Source: Sedimentisphaerales bacterium (GTDB taxonomy: Bacteria; Planctomycetota; Phycisphaerae; Sedimentisphaerales; Anaerobacaceae). From it: a DNA stretch of 64,000 nt. The translations under genes and the position numbers were made by a program. Numbering within the stretch: position 1 is the first letter of the stretch; each line of letters begins with the position of its first letter. This document shows positions 10,049 to 58,610 of the stretch, one piece after another. Under the pieces are notes generated by a model. The model was not told the origin of the DNA. It was given only the letters and a program-made list of their open reading frames with translations, and did not search any database. Location of the stretch: contig OY970194.1 of the NCBI GenBank assembly GCA_963708075.1, positions 5,280,001 through 5,344,000 on the forward strand, read 5' to 3'.

Positions 10049-10688
10049 GGGTGCGGCTGGTATTCGGTGGCGGCGTATAGCCGCCGTGTGCGGACTGCGC
10101 CTCTTTCGTCCCTTACGGGACTGGCTTTTGTCCTTGGCCCCGGTTTCCCAGCGATGAATCGCTGGGCTATTCTCTGTCGCCCTTCGGGCTTGAACTGCGC
10201 CCGGACGGGTCGATCACCATCCCGCAGGTGTTGCGGCTATTCTCTATCGCCCTGCGGGCTTGGACTGCACCTCTTTCGTCCCTTACGGGACTGGCTTTTG
10301 TCCTCGCCCCCGGGTTCCCCAGCGATGAATCGCTGGGCTATTCTCTATCGCCCTTCGGGCTTGGACAGCACCCGGACGGGTCGATCACCATCCCGCAGGT
10401 GTTGCAGCTATTCTCTGTCGCCCTGCGGGCTTGGACTGCGTCATGGCTGAGCTTCGTGATACTGCCAAATTGAAGGCTATCCTCTATTGCCCTGCGGGCT
10501 TGGACTTCGCTCCAGTCCTCTTGCGTCGGCCCATCCGCCCCACAGGGGCGATCGACAATAGCCCACCGTTTCAACGGTGGGTACCGGTAGCCTATCACAT
10601 CCCAAAGCCCCGCAGGGGCGAAAGAAGACTGCGGTGCGCTCTTGTGTCGGGTGCAATCCGAATCCGCCACCAAATGCCGACCGCACCC
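10049..10688. mobile_element. MITE family A (~25-bp TIR GGGTGCGG...GGTGGCGG) filled with tandem REP-like palindromes
   Basis: gggtgcggctggtattcggtggcgg ... ccgccaccaaatgccgaccgcaccc; internal gtcccttacgggact / cccagcgatgaatcgctgggcta unit present twice; shorter copy at 57840-58168. Confidence 0.8.
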
Positions 10689-27260: not shown

Positions 27261-27271
27261 GGAATGGTTTG

Positions 27272-28509
27272 ATGGCAGAACGAGTTGCGATACTGCTGGC
27301 GGCCGGGGTGAGCAGCCGGATGAATACCAAGCTGCCGAAGGTGCTGCACGAAGTGACCGGCCGGCCCATGCTGGCGTACGTGCTCGATGCGTGCCGAAGT
27401 GTCGGCGTAGACAAGATTTACGTCGTCGTCGGCTTCGGCGCCGAGCAGGTCAAGGAGCGGTTCGCCGCCGAGTCGAGGGACATCGTCTGGGTACATCAGC
27501 CCAAGCAGTTGGGAACGGCCCATGCGGTCATGTGCTGCAAGGAGCATCTGCAGAATTTCGACGGGCCAGACGCTCGTGCTGTGCGGCGATGGACCGCTGA
27601 TCCGGGCCAAGACCCTCCAGACGCTGATCGAGAAGCACGAGGCCGAGCAATCCGCGGCGACGCTGGCCACGGCGGTCCTGGACGACCCGACCGGCTACGG
27701 CCGCATCGTCCGCGACGCCTACGGCAATATGCAGGGCATCGTGGAGGACAGCGACTGCACGCCGGCGCAGCGGGCCGTCAGGGAAGTGAACCCGAGCTAC
27801 TACCTGTTCAACAACCAGGTGCTGTTCGGGGCGTTGGAGCAGGTCAAGCCGAACAACGTCAAGAAGGAATACTACCTGACGGATGCCTTGTCGCTGATCA
27901 TCGCGACGGGCCACAAGGTCGTGGCGGTCACGGCGGTTCGGCCGGAAGAGGCCATGGGCGTCAACAGCCGGGCCCAGCTGCAGCGTGGCCAGCAAGATCA
28001 TGCAGCACCGCGTCCAGCAGGAGCTGATGGAGAACGGCGTGACGATCGTGGATCCGGACAACACCTGGATCGACGCCCGCGCGCAAGATCGGGCAGGACA
28101 CGGTGATCGAGCCGTTCGTATATATTCACGGGCGAGGTGAAGATCGGCCGCGACTGCCGGATCGGGCCGTTTGCCTTCCTGCGGGATGGAACCGTGATCG
28201 GCGACGACGTCGTGCTCGGCGTGTTCACCGAGGTCAAGAACACCACGCTGGCCGACGGCGTCCGGGCCCGGCATCACAGCTATCTGGGCGACGCCGATAT
28301 CGGACGGCAACGTGAACGTCGGGGCCGGATCGATCACCGCCAATTTCGACGGCGAGAACGATGCAACCGGACGGCCGTCGGGCGACGACTGCTACATCGG
28401 CTCCGGCGCCGTTCTGATCGCGCCGCTGGTCCTCAAGACCGGCGCACGAATCGGTGCGGGGACGGTCGTTTCGCAGGATGACGTCGACAAGCTCGGCGCG
28501 AAAGGATAG
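27272..28509 (+). CDS. glmU: Bifunctional GlmU (several apparent frameshifts; short C-terminus)
   Basis: LAAG...RM...PKVLH, QLGTAHAV, GYGRIVR, EYYLTD, GVNSR, HSYLGDA, GAGSITANFDG. Confidence 0.93.
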
Positions 28510-28538
28510 TCGCAACACGGCAGGCAAGGGGCGACCAG

Positions 28539-29494
28539 ATGTTTCTGAATGACAACCTGAAAATATTCTCCGGGAGCAGCAATCCGGCACTGACCGTCGA
28601 GGTCTGCAAGTACCTGGGCATCCCGGTCGGCGGCGCCAAGATCAGCACGTTCCCGGACGGCGAGAAGCTGATCCGGATCGAGGACGACGTGCGCGGCCGC
28701 GACTGCTTCGTCGTCCAGTCCACGTGCAGGCCGGTGGATGAGCACCTGATGGAGCTGTTGATCTACCTGGATTGCCTGCGCCGGGCCAGCGCCAAGCGGA
28801 TCACGGCGGTGATCCCGTACTTCGGGTATGCCCGCCAGGACCGCAAGGACGAGGGCCGCGTGCCGATCACGGCCAAGCTGGTGGCGAATCTCATCACCAC
28901 GGCCGGGGCCGACCGCGTGCTGGCGATCGATCTGCACGCCCACCAGTTGCAGGGGTTCTTCGACATCCCGGTGGATCATCTGACGGGCGAGCTGGTGCTG
29001 AGCCGGTATTTCCGGGACAAGAAGATCGCGGACCTGAGCGGTGGTGTCGCCGGACGTGGGCAACATCAAGACGGCGGCCCGCTACGCCGCCCATCTCAAC
29101 GGCGATCTGGCGATCGTCCACAAGAAGCGGCATCAGCGGCTCGCAGGTCCAGGCGGGCGAGCTGATCGGCTCGGTGGAAGGCTGCAACGTGCTGATGTGC
29201 GACGACATCATCGCGACCGCCGGAACGATCTGCAGGCGGCCGAGCTGGTGAAGCAGCGCGGGGCCAAGAACGTATGCGTGGGCGTCACGCATGGCGTGTT
29301 CGCCGGCCCGGCGCTGGAGCGGCTGGAGAAGGCGCCCGATCGACGAGGTCGTCGTGACCAACACGATCCCGCTGACCGAAGAGGCGAAGAAGATCAAGAA
29401 GATCAAGGTTCTGAGCGTGGCCGCCATGCTTGGCGAGGCGATCAAGCGGATTCACAGGGACGAATCGGTGAGCAGTCTGTTCGCCGTCATGTAA
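28539..29494 (+). CDS. prs: Ribose-phosphate pyrophosphokinase (frameshifts)
   Basis: [38 protein letters not shown]. Confidence 0.95.
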
Positions 29495-29564
29495 GACAGA
29501 ACGCGTTTGTAATGCATGAGCACAAACTGGGTTTGCATAGATAAGTTGATCAGGTGAGAGACTT

Positions 29565-33563: not shown

Positions 33564-34877
<1,314 letters not shown>

Positions 34878-35219
34878 TTACACTCAGTCAAGATGTCCCT
34901 GCTCCGCTGCCCGCCGAGGGCGTCACGGGGATGAACGTCATCCAGCGCTCGATCTACACGCTTTGCGTACGCACATCTGCCCAATTTGTTTCCCAAAGGT
35001 CCCCGGATGCCATTCCGCCTGGACATTGTACGATCACAGGAGGACAGCCAATTTCCCACGGTTCCCGTAGTGGTGCTCTGATATACCCAGGCTCAATTCC
35101 TGTCAAGGACAATCGCAGCAAGCAGATCCTCTGGCTTTGTTCGGCCGGGCCGGTCCAGTGCGTGGCGAGGCCATTCCCCGCCTGCGCGGGGACAGGCTCT
35201 GGCCTCGCCTGGCAGGCCA

Positions 35220-35733
35220 AATTGGCTTTGTTTCGCAGACCACGCCCGCCCCCGGCGGGGAGGGGCGGCCCCGGCAATGGGCTTTGTTTCGCGCGGTAGG
35301 CCGAGCGTCGCCACTCGCCCCGGTCGGGCAGGCCGAATTGGCTTTGTTTCACAAGATCATCCACGCGCTCCCCTCCAGCCTGCCGCCTTCCCTCAGCCAA
35401 TTGGCTTTGTTTCGCGCCGGCCTGCCGCACTAGTCTTCTCCAGGTGCCCCATCCCGCCCAAGTTTGGCTTTGTTTCGCAGACCACGCCCGCCCTCGGCGG
35501 GGAGGGACGACCCCGGTAATTGGCTTTGTTTCGCAGAATAGCCCTGGCTCGTAGTGCCGCAAGGCGTTCGTGGCGAGGGCGTCCCACCCTTGTCTTCCGC
35601 CCCGAATTGGCTTTGTTTCATACAATTGGCCATGTGGCTCCCTCGTCCCGGCCGCGGGTCCCGGGGCATATTGGGTTTGTTTCGCATCGCCATCCTCCCC
35701 CCATGTCGGTCCCCGGAATTGGCTTTGTTTCGA
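35220..35733. repeat. Array of nine 17-bp direct repeats AATTGGCTTTGTTTCGC with variable spacers
   Basis: Copies at 35220, 35276, 35336, 35399, 35462, 35518, 35605, 35669, 35717. Confidence 0.92.
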
Positions 35734-36027
35734 AGAATCGTTCATCCGTCCTCATTCCGTATTCCGCAGTTCCCGGCCCCCCCAACCTCCCGGGACTTAC
35801 GATTCTTGATCTTTGATTTTTGAAGTGTGATTTGATAGTTGGTCATAGGCCCATATACTAGAGACGCTCGCCGAGCCGGATTGTTGCAACAAGTTTCTGT
35901 TAGCTGGTGAAAATAATTACAACCTGTTGTAGCCCGGTGCCATACAGTGCTGTGTTGTCGTGCATCGACCTGGAAGACCCGCCCCTGCCCCGCCCTACCC
36001 CGTGGCAGCCCCCCCGCATGGCGGCGC

Positions 36028-36139
36028 CGTTCGTAGTGACGCCGTAAGGCGTTCCCGTAGCATGGGCGTCCCGCCCATGAATCTCAAATCACGGGCAAAA
36101 TGCCCGTGCTACCATGCCCTTACGGGCACACTACAAACG
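36028..36139. repeat. Nested palindromic repeat (CGTTYGTAGTG ends enclosing a GTAG REP doublet)
   Basis: cgttcgtagtg...gtagcatgggcgtcccgcccatg...cacgggcaaaatgcccgtgctac...cactacaaacg. Confidence 0.7.
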
Positions 36140-36467
36140 AGCCGATCCGTCTGCTGCAAACGCCGGTTTTCCTTCACAGACACGCCCCGGCCTTCGGCCG
36201 CAATCAAGACCGCGATAGCCGAAAGAAGCGAAAAGGAGCGAAAAGATCATGTAGGCCGGCCGTCCCCAACTGGGGCAACCGCCAGACGCAGCCGCTTGAA
36301 GGCTGGGCTACAAGGCATACCGTTTTCTTTGCGTCTTCCTTCGCTCTTGTCGGCTCTCCGTTTCATTCCTTCCTCCTGTTCGTCCTTTCGGCTGCCCTTG
36401 TTGAGCCCGCCCGCAGGATGGGCCCGTGACCGACGCCGCTATCTTCCCGAAATTCTCGCCCGCCCGC

Positions 36468-36496: not shown

Positions 36497-36692
36497 CACG
36501 GATGACAGTTGGAGCGAATCGCATGGTGGCAGTGCTGGAGACGGACAATCTCAGGGACTCGCTCGGTACACATGGGGCAATCGTTGGTCCACGCGTCGCG
36601 GGACGGAGTTACAACGGCCCTCTTCAACCTAAACGCGTAACTTAAGGGCCGACCCCCAAAAGTCCCTGGGCGGTAAGAGAAGGGAGATACAC

Positions 36693-37322
36693 ATGGCGAA
36701 ACGGAAGGTCGGAGAGTTGCTTCGGATCAACCTGACGGTTCCACTCTGGTTCATCATCGGTGCGGGTGTGCTCGCCTTTCTTATCAGCTATCTCTGCGCA
36801 GCACAACACCGAGACCAGATCAAGTTTGCAGCCGTTCTCCTCGGTGCCGCCGCCGGGATCTACAGCGCGTACTATGTCGGTGCTGCCCTGCGTTTGCAGC
36901 TTTCAAGAGAGCGCCAGAAGGCAAGCTTCGAGCTGCTCGGCCTGCTGAATCGACCTGAATTCGTCAAAGTGAGAAACTTCCTGGAAAGGGAAGTTGAAGG
37001 GCACGAGAAACTCTCCGCTGAAGAGCTCTACGCCAAGGTCGATGGGAACGATGAACTGGATAACGCTGTAACAGTGGTGATGGACATTCTGGAGGACATG
37101 TCGATAGCGATCCAGAACGACTACGCTGAGGAAGAGATTCTCCGTCTATCTCTGGTGTGTATCGTCGAGCGGAATTGGAATGGTCTGCGTGGCTGGGTCG
37201 AGCAACTTCGCAAGAAGCATGGCGATCAAAGACTGTTTTCGGAACTCCAGAAGCTCGCGACAAGCTGGGAGTCGGGAAAGCGCCTATGCGATGGGCGGGA
37301 ACTCCCAGTGCTTCCCAAGTGA
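36693..37322 (+). CDS. Membrane-anchored hypothetical protein, DUF4760-like
   Basis: Two TM helices, then ILEDMSIAI...W..L..WVE.LR......F.ELQKLA..W pattern; AAGGGAG RBS. Confidence 0.65.
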   Translation: MAKRKVGELLRINLTVPLWFIIGAGVLAFLISYLCAAQHRDQIKFAAVLLGAAAGIYSAYYVGAALRLQLSRERQKASFELLGLLNRPEFVKVRNFLEREVEGHEKLSAEELYAKVDGNDELDNAVTVVMDILEDMSIAIQNDYAEEEILRLSLVCIVERNWNGLRGWVEQLRKKHGDQRLFSELQKLATSWESGKRLCDGRELPVLPK

Positions 37323-37561
37323 TTGACGTTAGGGCGGGCCCTACCGCGACACTTAATTCAGACTCGCAATGAGTATTGTGCCCCCGGAATCTCCCGTAAC
37401 TTCGCGACGGACTAAGGGCTCCCCCACGTCCCGTTGGCTTTCCTTTTAAACTCGCGCCTCACGTTCGGTGGAATTTGGTATGGTGTCACGGCAATTCACC
37501 GCAATTCCCATAAAGCTTGCCATGCGTGGTCACCATCCTTGGACGTTTCCGCGTGGGGTAG

Positions 37562-37907: not shown

Positions 37908-38084
37908 TCAGGGGCCAGCCCTTAAGTCAAGCGTTAAGGGTGGCGGGGGGTCTTTGAGTTTGGCGGCGATGGTGGCTACCGTGACTTGCAGGCGTTTGTT
38001 TGATTCAAGGGCCTGGGCGAGCTTGCGCAGTTGGAGACTGACGGCCGCCCCGGTGGCGATGCCCAGTATGTGGGCCGCCTGCCG
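37908..38084 (-). pseudogene. C-terminal HTH-like remnant, probably of a second RAYT
   Basis: RQAAHILGIATGAAVSLQLRKL...; stop codon inside a CTGACCCC end motif, as for 3341. Confidence 0.5.
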
Positions 38085-38160: not shown

Positions 38161-38231
38161 GGGTGGTTTGCCCGGCGCTTGTGCTGCGCGCTAAGGGGCC
38201 ACTGAAATCAACTATTGTCGAAAGCGTCAGA

Positions 38232-40042
38232 ATGCTGAAAAGAACACACAACTGCGGCGAGCTTCGCCTGGAAGACACGGGCAAGAAGGTCATACTATCC
38301 GGCTGGGTCCAGTCCTATCGGGACCACGGCAACCTGGTGTTTTTCGATTTACGAGACCGGGAGGGGCTGACGCAACTGGTGTTTGACCCCGAGATCCAGG
38401 CGGAGCCACACCGAATGGCCCGCACGGTCCGCTGCGAGTGGGTCGTCGCCGCCAGCGGCACGGTTCGGCCGAGGAGCGAGGGCATGGAGAACCCCAAGCT
38501 GGTCACCGGGCAGATCGAAGTGATCGTGGACCGGCTGGAGATCCTCAATATGGCCAGGACCCCGCCGTTCGACATCGACGACGAGATCCGCACCAACGAG
38601 GAAACCCGGCTGGAGTACCGCTACATCGATCTTCGCCGGCCTTCGATGCAGCAAAAGCTGCGGACCCGCCATCGCGTCACGTCGCTCGTGCGCAAGTACT
38701 TTGACGAGAAGGGTTTCTGGGAGATCGAGACTCCCATGCTGGCCAAGAGCACGCCGGAGGGGGCCAGGGACTTCCTCGTGCCCAGCCGCCTGGTGCGAGG
38801 CTCCTTCTACGCCTTGCCCCAGTCGCCCCAGTTGTTCAAGCAGATCCTGATGATGAGCGGCATGGACAAGTACTTCCAGATCGTCCGCTGCTTCCGCGAT
38901 GAGGACCCGCGGGCCGACCGCCAGGCGGAGTTCACGCAGATCGACGTGGAGATGAGCTTCGTCGAGTCCGATGACGTCATTCGGATGCATGAGCCGCTGA
39001 TCGCCCGGATCTGGAAGGAGATCGCGGGGATCGACGTGCCGCTGCCCATCCGCAGAATGCCATACTCCGAGGCGATGCGGGATTACGGCATCGACCGGCC
39101 CGACCTGCGGTTCGACATGAAGCTCAAGGATATCTCCGACCTTGCCCGCCAGAGCACCTTCAAAGTGTTCGTCTCGACCATCGAGAATGGGGGCGTGGTC
39201 AAAGGTTTGTGCGCCCGGCCGGCGACAAGTACTCGCGAAGCGATATCGACAAGACGCTCACGGGCCTTGTGATGGACTATGGCGCCAAAGGCCTGTCCTG
39301 GGGCAAGCTGAAAATGGAGGGCGGAACGCCCTCGTTCGTCGGCGGGCTCGGCAAGTTCTTCACTCCCGAGCAGCAGAAGCAGTTGGTCGAGCGCTTCGGG
39401 GCCAAAGACGGCGATATATTGCTGGTCGTGGCCGACAAAGAGGCCGCGGCGAACAAGGCGCTGGCGCCGCTTCGATGCCGGGTGGCCAGGGACCTGAAAA
39501 TGTACGATCCGAGCAAGTTCGAATTTGTTTGGGTCGTAGACTTCCCGCTGTTCGAATGGAACGAGGATGACAAGCGGTTCGATTCCGTCCATCATCCGTT
39601 TACAGCCCCGGTAGCCGAGGACCTGCTCAAGCTCGAAACCGATCCGGGCCACATCCGCTCCCAGGCGTATGACATCGTCGTCAACGGCAGCGAGGTCGGC
39701 GGCGGAAGCATTCGTATCCACAGGCCCGAGGTCCAGCAGAAAGTCTTCGATCTGCTCAACATCACGCGGGAGCAGGCGGAAGTACGGTTCGGTTTCTTCC
39801 TCAAGGCTCTGGACTACGGTGCCCCGCCCCACGGCGGCATCGCCCTTGGACTGGACAGGCTCATCATGATGCTGACCGGCACGGACAACATCCGCGACGT
39901 GATCGCGTTCCCCAAGACGCAGAGGGGCCAGTGCCTCATGACCGGCGCTCCCAGCGAGGTCGATCAGAAGCAGCTCGATGAGCTTAACCTGCGGACGCAA
40001 AAGCACTTACACGCGGACGAGGAGAAGCCCAAGCAACCGTAG
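38232..40042 (+). CDS. aspS: Aspartate-tRNA ligase, likely non-discriminating (one frameshift about 39212)
   Basis: [51 protein letters not shown]. Confidence 0.97.
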
Positions 40043-57394: not shown

Positions 57395-58610
57395 TCAGTG
57401 ACTACGCGCCGCCAGCTTTCGTCTGCGGAGCTTCCGTGACGGCTGTTTCGTTGCTCGCTTCGAGACTCGCGGGGGACGTTTGCGGCCTTTGCGCGCGGGG
57501 GCCTTGGGCCGGGCTGCCGTCCGCTTGCCTTTCGTCTTGGCCTTCCTGGCCTTTTGCCTGGCCATTTTCCGCTTCCACGCGGCATGCACTTTTCGCCGTC
57601 GTTCGGGCGGCCACTCGTCGGGCAGGTTCACCCAGGCGAACTCGCCGCCGCACTCGACGGCCCTGTAATCATAGGCTCGGGCCGCCTCGATCTCTTCACC
57701 GAACGACCCAAGCTGGAATTCTTCACCCTTGAAACTGAATCTTGCATACCACCTGCGGCTATTTCGAGCGCGCATGACACCCTTGAACCTCGAAACGCCA
57801 CCCATGCGTTTGGGGCTATTGTGCGCATTCTCCCCGCGTGGGTGCGGTCGGCATTCGGTGGCGGCTTCGGATTCCAGCCGACACAAGAGCGCAACCCAGT
57901 CTTCTTTCGCCCCTACGGGGCTTTGGGATGTGATTGGCTATCGGTACCCACCGTTGAAACGGTGGGCTAGTGTCGATCGCCCCCGTGGGGCGGACGGGCC
58001 GACGCAAGAGGACTGAAGCGAAGTCCAAGCCCGCAGGGCGATAGAGAATAGCCCAGCGATTTATCGCTGGGGAACCGGGGCCGAGGACAAAAGCCAGTCC
58101 CGTAAGGGACGAAAGAGGCGCAGTCCGCACACGGCGGCTGCACGCCGCCACCGAATTCCGACCACCCCCCCCGCGTGTGCAAGCGCGCAGGTTACGCGCG
58201 CAGTTGTCCAGGCGATTACCGTTCCTGTGATCGACGACCATTCCCTTCGGGGGCTGTATGATTTGGTGGTACATGAAGATGGCTCTTCCCTTCTCGTACC
58301 GAGCGGCATATCCGGCACACACTCTCCACTTGTACCGGCTCAGCCGCTCGTAGTCGGCGGCGTCCACATAGGCGTACGGGCCGCCGGATAGGGGGATTCG
58401 CTTGACCGTCTCGTCGGCCGGGTCCGGGGACGGAGGCCTGACCCGATAGTTGCGGCAGACCGTGCCGGGCGGGATCTCCCGCATCAGGCCCGGCGTGTCC
58501 GGGTGGTTGGCACAGACCGGGCGGGCCGGAAAACCTGACGATAGGCTGCGCGTCTATAGACCCCGGTCCCAAAACGCAAAAACGCAGGTGTGACAGCTTG
58601 GCTTTACCAT
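57395..58610 (-). pseudogene. Second HNH-AP2 gene, inactivated by an in-frame TAG (58554-58556) and a MITE insertion
   Basis: MVKPSCHTC..*..CANHP..C.NYR..YAYVDAADYE..PPKGMVVDHRNGNRLDN [MITE] SRFKGV..EIEAARAYD..N.PDEWPPERR. Confidence 0.88.
57840..58168. mobile_element. MITE family A, 329 bp, 8-bp TSD
   Basis: ccccgcgt at 57832-57839 and 58169-58176; removal restores LRACTRGENAHN frame. Confidence 0.88.

Follow-up and report, generated by a model that had tools for sequence, protein, structure and literature searches.

A short-repeat array in a Sedimentisphaerales genome is best read as a gene-less copy of a dispersed one-gene element

Sponge RNAs of the CsrB/CrcZ type carry many A-rich motifs between GC-rich stretches and have their own promoter, and a site-bend-site arrangement occurs in many DNA complexes besides lambda cosB. 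In lambda, cosB holds TerS by such an arrangement, as described in PMC4856287. The NIME arrays, composed of dRS3 repeats and RS elements, are intergenic and combine a short constant repeat with spacers of 50–150 bp from many shared families; syntenic arrays vary in number and order, and other repeats and IS fall into them (PMC1797815). The same account proposes recombination at the repeat, names a phage-borne transposase as candidate recombinase and describes the arrays as restricted to Neisseria (PMC1797815). The array analysed here lies in a 64,000-nt stretch of contig OY970194.1 (the window) from a Sedimentisphaerales bacterium with a genome of 7.5 Mb (the source genome). It is a member of no family tested, and is best read as behaving like a NIME array that grew from a non-autonomous one-gene element.

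The array consists of nine copies of a 17-bp motif (Table 1), with starts at 35220, 35276, 35336, 35399, 35462, 35518, 35605, 35669 and 35717. A recount gave the same periods (56, 60, 63, 63, 56, 87, 64 and 48) as a prior annotation made from the letters of the window, the sequence-only reading. The exact 17-mer occurs in three of the nine copies, the others being one or two positions off, and the nine matches compare with a mean of 0.27 and a maximum of 2 in 100 shuffles. The first and fifth spacers, noticed earlier as nearly identical, are 93% alike over 71 nt, and the spacer with a REP-like hairpin has a counterpart, 76% alike, among the spacers of the C1:7459742 array. The motif appears as KQSQ, ETKP and NKAN in the three frames of a 263-aa open frame, from which the sequence-only reading had concluded that conservation acts at the nucleic-acid level. 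This conclusion is borne out by the frame scoring as non-coding and lacking a conserved homolog: its coding score is −0.16 per codon, compared with +0.44 for metY, there is no full-length homolog among 23 congeners, and no match was found in Pfam, NCBIfam or PHROG. The frame was rejected as a gene on its negative score and the lack of a conserved homolog, and with it the contrary case that the reading had named, a conserved expressed protein. Arrays of this kind account for many spurious 'hypothetical proteins' ending in KQSQ, ETKP, NKAN or NEPN. The window array has no Rfam match, CRISPR repeats included, and no terminator distinct from the repeats was found.

Table 1. Features of the array and its immediate surroundings, in window coordinates
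Feature	Position	Strand	Basis or remark
Cys/Met PLP enzyme, metY-like, downstream host gene	33564..34856	−	PF01053, E 2e-134
263-aa open frame spanning the array	34954..35745	−	likely not a gene
Host sigma70-like promoter TTGACA-17-TATCAG, ahead of metY, outside the element	35078..35106	−	predicted
Degenerate tenth motif	35131..35144	−	
Nine-motif array, 17-bp motifs, eight GC-rich spacers	35220..35733	−	core AAACAAAGCCAA on the minus strand
Spacer with GTAG-type REP-like hairpin	35535..35604	−	REP class as described in PMC3733652
Heptamer tract	35801..35836	−	also precedes the ribosome-binding site of full genes
Leader with homology to those of six full gene copies	35831..35950	−	nhmmer E 2.2e-7 with promoter boxes masked; alignment
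ECF-type promoter-like site TGCAAC-N16-CGTCT	35862..35888	−	predicted
Degenerate 25-bp IHF-consensus-like site, marks the 5' end of the element	35920..35944	−	fails the strict pattern; aligned position homologous

Several other features of this part of the window were observed. A cluster of GTAG-type REP-like hairpins, a kind very abundant in sediment contigs, lies just outside the 5' end of the element (36028–36140). Between the array and aspS is a DUF4760 gene (36693–37322), with half sites at 36618–36656, 37322–37360 and 37911–37949 that we take to be attC-like; the gene is possibly an integron-type cassette without an integrase. The glmU-, prs- and aspS-like genes (27269–29544, 38163–40042) appear split by frameshifts, likely through indel errors of the assembly.

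The sequence ahead of the array links it to a gene. An orphan gene is present in nine copies in the source genome, six of which carry the same leader as the window array. A profile of these six leaders with the promoter boxes masked detected 13 further loci at E<1e-4, and 12 of these, the window included, lie just upstream of gene-less arrays. The ECF-type site and the heptamer tract that the sequence-only reading had reported beside the array are both present, and within the leader the predicted promoter boxes are conserved best: 124 of 130 box positions are kept in gene-less copies (the second box scored one column to the right, as GTCT), compared with 75% in the remaining leader. Other gene-less arrays have sigma70- or sigma54-like leaders, which also head full genes here or in congeners, so that leaders of predicted sigma70-, ECF- and sigma54-like type are all in use across the arrays. 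Gene-less arrays also retain traces of the gene that they have lost. First-codon remnants of at least 5 bits occur in 4 of 35 upstream regions, three of them at the expected place, compared with none in two strand controls and 1 in 300 random regions. One deletion junction, 44–47 nt after the old start codon, is common to four gene-less arrays, which indicates that the gene-less form itself multiplied. An open frame runs through all six gene-bearing arrays with four or more copies and through 5 of 28 gene-less ones (p 3e-4); in the gene-bearing arrays it mostly reaches the conserved tail and shows a mild codon-position bias. From these sequence comparisons, the window array, which had been taken for a stand-alone one, is best read as derived by gene deletion from an element that is dispersed in the genome and carries a gene; it has an IHF-like site and spacer modules in common with other arrays.

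Individual copies show further rearrangements. In congener G013 the copies have the gene in common from codon 1 and differ in their leaders, suggestive of promoter swapping between copies. A full copy at C1:4778158–4780600 is frameshifted, and its array is interrupted by a transposase-like ORF of 393 aa; at C1:3463176 an insertion separates a leader from its array.

The sequence-only reading had suggested counting the motif across the genome and in relatives, and searching for genes that accompany the arrays. The 12-bp core occurs in 288 copies and 44 clusters in the source genome, where 38 arrays have three or more copies, the window array among these. Core positions are at least 95% constant over the 288 copies while the spacers diverge. 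Conservation fades gradually on the 5' side and stops after AATT on the 3' side, the motif being asymmetric, 12–17 bp long, and repeated at periods of 32–198 nt genome-wide. All 38 arrays are in a single orientation, facing away from the promoter. Ten motif clusters lie at the 3' end of the orphan gene, and every one of its nine copies has an array. The linkage extends beyond this genome. Ninety-one distinct planctomycete loci were collected outside the source genome, 85 of them with enough sequence, and the motif lies downstream in sense orientation in 84 of the 85 and upstream in 0 of 78; at loci labelled Acidobacteriota, Alphaproteobacteria and others, it lies downstream in 11 of 23 and upstream in 0 of 22. 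All 24 genomes of the genus contain the motif (8–683 copies), compared with 0–3 copies in 16 genomes of other families. Gene and motif counts are correlated over the 24 congeners, which are kin and not independent (rho 0.81). No full gene was found in two congeners with fragmented assemblies (G006 and G011), which retain 50 and 8 motifs. Viral contigs gave only six matches of the 17-mer, single and gene-less. A protein family coupled to a conserved motif is found in Planctomycetota, Acidobacteriota and Alphaproteobacteria, with dozens of gene-less arrays per genome; the pairing provides a protein and a site that can be tested together, and non-enzymatic selfish elements of this sort are a candidate class.

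The orphan protein belongs to a large family (24,986 clusters at 50% identity, E<=0.001) that is undescribed in the open literature searched; the available part of a Solibacter paper (PMC3174227) makes no mention of it. The protein was found in 21 of 23 congeners, where a genome can have as many as 24 matches; among more distant relatives, 4 of 17 have it. Three gene copies were tested and matched no Pfam, NCBIfam or PHROG family over the cut-off and no Rep. The predicted model (pLDDT 85) is entirely helical and features a long hairpin. Its fold has no match at E<=0.001 in BFVD or PDB; VIA-align returned generic coiled coils only (best Z 8.2), and the ESM Atlas unnamed clusters only, the nearest named one being SEC-C-fused (0.79). 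By sequence, the PDB yielded nothing beyond two weak MazF matches (E 0.45–0.59). No terminase is among the fold matches listed for the model, which by itself would not exclude a terminase fold. The N-terminus resembles two phage protein groups, over residues 3–45 (probability 98.8) and 11–64 (probability 97.4), and the likeness is confined to the first 45–65 residues, ending at about residue 65. Of the phage proteins in these groups, 3 of 15 match the PHROG of the terminase small subunit, and for 8 of 17 the next gene matches the terminase large subunit. None of 30 phage loci encoding such proteins carries the motif.

Viral contigs (L120–L171) encode a group of unnamed phage proteins with the same N-terminal motif and a Cys-rich segment, directly before divergent large terminases. 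These proteins are likely unannotated small terminases.

A second conserved sequence, a 25-bp site of the pattern T(A/T)A-N12-xAA-N4-TTR, precedes the promoter in 38 of 88 loci, compared with 5 on the reverse strand and 2 of 78 in the control. Its right half resembles WATCAANNNNTTR, as given in PMC5224486, from which the IHF consensus was taken; PMC6907758 was left unused, as its available text lists an IHF consensus under H-NS. CAA-N4-TTR is kept and the left part has one or more mismatches. The resemblance to IHF is one of consensus; the three DNABII proteins of the source genome score best on IHF models, below the cut-off. The site is found in 10 of 29 gene-less arrays of the source genome, near the 5' limit of homology, compared with 3 of 1000 at random. 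It also forms part of a 90-bp unit. Motif pairs are 88–92 nt apart in 38 of 98 cases, and where the strict pattern matches, the distance from the left motif to the start of the site is 35–36 nt in 13 of 13, and in 7 of 10 in the source genome. The position ahead of the promoter and the fixed offset inside the 90-bp unit favour a role as DNA. Among 151 phylum-wide genomes, a sample without congeners, the strict unit pattern was found in the source genome only; the window array has no such motif-site-motif unit among its spacers, and its own 25-bp site is degenerate.

The 25-bp palindrome also occurs in 14 copies away from arrays (e.g. C1:1874212, 6260125, 798514 and 2321596), one of them right after tRNA-Lys and one near a tyrosine-recombinase-like ORF (read by eye). 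Its identification as a recombinase core is unsupported; most of the 14 copies precede host promoters.

Spacers are re-used between arrays. A partner at least 70% alike in another array exists for 98 of 223 spacers (best shuffled 0.67), and spacer families recur in different orders. A comparison with phage sequences, one of those that the sequence-only reading had suggested, gave no match at E<=1. REP-like hairpins are present in 17 of 187 spacers in sense and in 5 in antisense (3.8 in shuffles), and heptamer tracts in 28 of 187. In a related strain, a contig spanning metY, the leader and the window array shows blocks a-b and c-d in exchanged positions, plus two additional units. Both block joints are supported by a second run, and one has 15 shared letters in the motif. 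Joints within the motif are also predicted by slippage, and unequal exchange with deletion explains the reordering as well as enzyme-driven excision.

The presence of arrays among congeners is patchy. The metY-aspS interval holds no array in six of six congeners, one congener carries an array beyond aspS, a position that is empty in the window, and at six other host genes an array is present at 4 of 24 orthologous sites. The arrays at clpX and typA have leaders of different subfamilies in different species, which suggests repeated arrival or leader exchange; sites common to several species may represent old vertical inheritance with loss. The window array has no terminal inverted repeats or target duplication, and searches for a left end of the element, a duplicated target or an enzyme that mobilises it were negative. 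No duplication was seen by eye at inverted pairs, and a search of four runs for the empty site of a full copy gave no bridging contig. Five full copies end exactly at the terminal repeat of an active IS4-type IS/MITE family, without a left end or duplication. This repeat is absent from the window array and from the 3' ends of gene-less arrays, and in two congeners just 2 of 34 loci have it nearby; IS4 ends were therefore rejected as a general route of mobility. The possibility raised by the sequence-only reading that the arrays are fragments of a known IS or MITE finds no support, given the lack of terminal repeats and duplication and a parent gene that is not a transposase.

The IS4-type MITE family itself comprises 71 end pairs, 41 of them with 7–9-bp duplications, and an intact IS4 transposase is encoded elsewhere. 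Members lie at 10049–10688 and 57840–58169 of the window and at C1:46637–48344. The Acido-Lenti-1 Rfam matches of the window fall inside these MITEs, so the RNA family may be MITE/REP DNA here.

These data suggest a probable mobile element of a kind not so far described, related forms of which occur in several bacterial phyla. Judged from sequence, there is an even chance that the array is a gene-less copy of this undescribed dispersed element, that the motifs are DNA sites of its protein, and that the copy is moved in trans as a selfish element. The complete unit would comprise the IHF-like site, a promoter, the gene of the all-helical protein and one or more 12–17-bp motifs. The unnamed protein, which is predicted to be helical, likely reads the motifs as sites on double-stranded DNA; a basic conserved N-terminal arm and a helical hairpin that would oligomerise are consistent with such binding. 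A host IHF-family protein would bend the DNA between the two motifs of the 90-bp unit, and the oligomer would grip both. Full copies would supply the protein to gene-less copies, and insertion would favour positions immediately ahead of host promoters. Recombination between motifs is the likely means by which the array grows and changes its order. As the protein has no enzyme fold, cutting and joining would need a borrowed enzyme, either a host or IS recombinase or a phage terminase. Among the functions that the sequence-only reading had offered, a recombination or protein-binding array fits best. An iteron array was rejected on the absence of a Rep match and the irregular repeat spacing, and helical phasing is weak over 204 gaps (R 0.10 at 10.5 bp, p 0.12; p 0.011, uncorrected, at 11 bp). 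A non-coding RNA is a live rival.

As RNA, the gene-less arrays would be promoter-driven decoys, each transcript exposing numerous A-rich motifs in unpaired form, that titrate the element protein or a host RNA-binding protein, in the manner of a sponge or of antitoxin-like anti-addiction. We regard this as doubtful. The maintenance of promoter boxes after gene loss, the use of three leader types, the uniform sense orientation in the source genome and the far better conservation of motif than of spacers are consistent with a decoy, and AAACAAA is predicted to be unpaired in 57–97% of copies, compared with about 40% overall, as expected for an A-rich tract. By contrast, congeners have mixed-orientation arrays and inverted motifs (four of four picked for mixing, once head to head), and antisense motifs occur at 20 of 85 planctomycete loci outside the source genome; an inverted pair could, however, also form an RNA stem. 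The fixed geometry of motif, IHF-like site and motif also argues against a decoy, as do an IHF-like site upstream of the promoter, where transcription would miss it, the lack of a distinct terminator or Rfam match, and the absence of unusual folding relative to shuffles in 12 arrays (median z −0.3). A further proposal is a packaging system with a stand-alone small-terminase-like gene and a cos/pac-like site. The protein and IHF would assemble on the motifs and recruit the large terminase of a helper phage, which would lead to packaging and transduction of the element along with adjoining chromosomal DNA; the gene-less arrays would be parasites of the system. The N-terminal match to two phage groups, the terminase genes found among and beside their members, and the long helical hairpin of the model speak for this proposal, together with the R3-I1-R2 order of lambda cosB reported in PMC4856287 and the pac repeats that overlap the terS gene of SPP1 according to PMC4737164. 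Its probability is nevertheless low, as the likeness stops at about residue 65, no terminase is among the listed fold matches, the motif is missing from the phage loci and nearly so from viral contigs, and DNA transfer between cells leaves new chromosomal sites unexplained. A broader version is unlikely as well, though a little less so: a small-terminase DNA-binding arm would have been redeployed in a huge family of chromosomal one-gene cassettes with an IHF-bent docking site, and cassettes and gene-less arrays would seed dozens of packaging or recombination starts throughout the chromosome, moving both their own and host DNA via borrowed machinery. If the packaging reading were true, the arrays would amount to a chromosome-wide gene-transfer device.

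Domestication of the arrays as upstream regulatory cassettes, either operator arrays or extra promoters tuning the downstream host gene, appears quite improbable. With an approximate sigma70 matrix, a sigma70-like site of at least 10 bits lies no more than 160 nt from the end of 11 of 29 gene-less arrays (2 of 29 in antisense; 77 of 400 ORF-upstream controls), the next gene is co-directional in 24 of 29, and the sites at clpX and typA recur in other species. However, the array is absent at 26 of 30 orthologous sites tested, the neighbours have no common function (read by eye), the tandem-gap bias is only 14 to 5 by hand count, and the host promoter is conserved whether an array is present or not. 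It is very improbable that the arrays are inert passengers, that is, low-complexity 3' tails of a duplicated gene carried by IS4-type or REP-associated transposases and expanded by slippage. The five full copies that end at the IS4-type repeat, the presence in the genome of an IS4-type IS and about 70 MITE pairs with 7–9-bp duplications, and the REP-like hairpins and heptamer tracts of the spacers agree with passengers; the constancy of the core beside diverging spacers, a motif that follows the gene in other phyla too, and the absence of the IS4 repeat from this array and from the 3' ends of gene-less arrays, with its rarity in two congeners, disagree. An orphan or degenerate CRISPR array has practically no probability. 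An IHF-like site in a leader ahead of a repeat-spacer array recalls type I-E, as described in PMC5224486, and was set against the 17-bp repeat, the irregular periods and the spacers common to several arrays; the CRISPR reading was rejected on these points and on the absence of cas1, of phage matches and of an Rfam CRISPR repeat. The sequence-only reading had likewise called the array unlike CRISPR, and rightly so, as repeats of 24–48 bp with regular unique spacers are not found here. Its statement that cas genes are lacking stands for cas1 (PF01867), which is absent from the source genome (93% complete) in a search whose control matched 7 of 14.

In comparison with known systems, the likeness to CRISPR arrays lies in a leader followed by a constant repeat with variable spacers. 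CsrB/CrcZ-type sponges share the A-rich motifs between GC-rich stretches and a predicted own promoter; they differ in that the motif here can be inverted in relatives and is set in an IHF-like DNA geometry. As in lambda cosB (TerS sites R3-I1-R2-R1) and SPP1 pac, described in PMC4856287 and PMC4737164, repeated short sites surround an IHF-like site and adjoin or lie inside a small gene, and the N-terminus is like that of proteins in small-terminase position. By contrast, there is no large terminase or prophage beside the element, the neighbours of the source genome gene copies looking like unrelated host genes (read by eye); the spacing is about 90 bp, the protein likeness is limited to the N-terminal 45–65 residues, and related phage loci have no motif. 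With REP/BIME clusters of the GTAG family (PMC3733652) the arrays share hairpins in some spacers and a mosaic intergenic organization, but the constant unit is not a palindrome, and most spacers, as well as the AT-rich relatives, are without REPs. Like MITEs and other non-autonomous IS, internal-deletion copies outnumber gene-bearing ones, are intergenic and are patchy among relatives, whereas terminal inverted repeats and target duplication are missing and the parent gene is not a transposase. NIME arrays have in common with the present ones a constant repeat between shared spacer families and variability between strains. They differ in the dRS3 repeat, a 20-bp inverted repeat according to PMC1797815, whereas the motif here is asymmetric; a further difference is that the present arrays come with a promoter leader and derive from the 3' portion of one particular gene. 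They offer a second, non-Neisseria case of NIME-like array dynamics.
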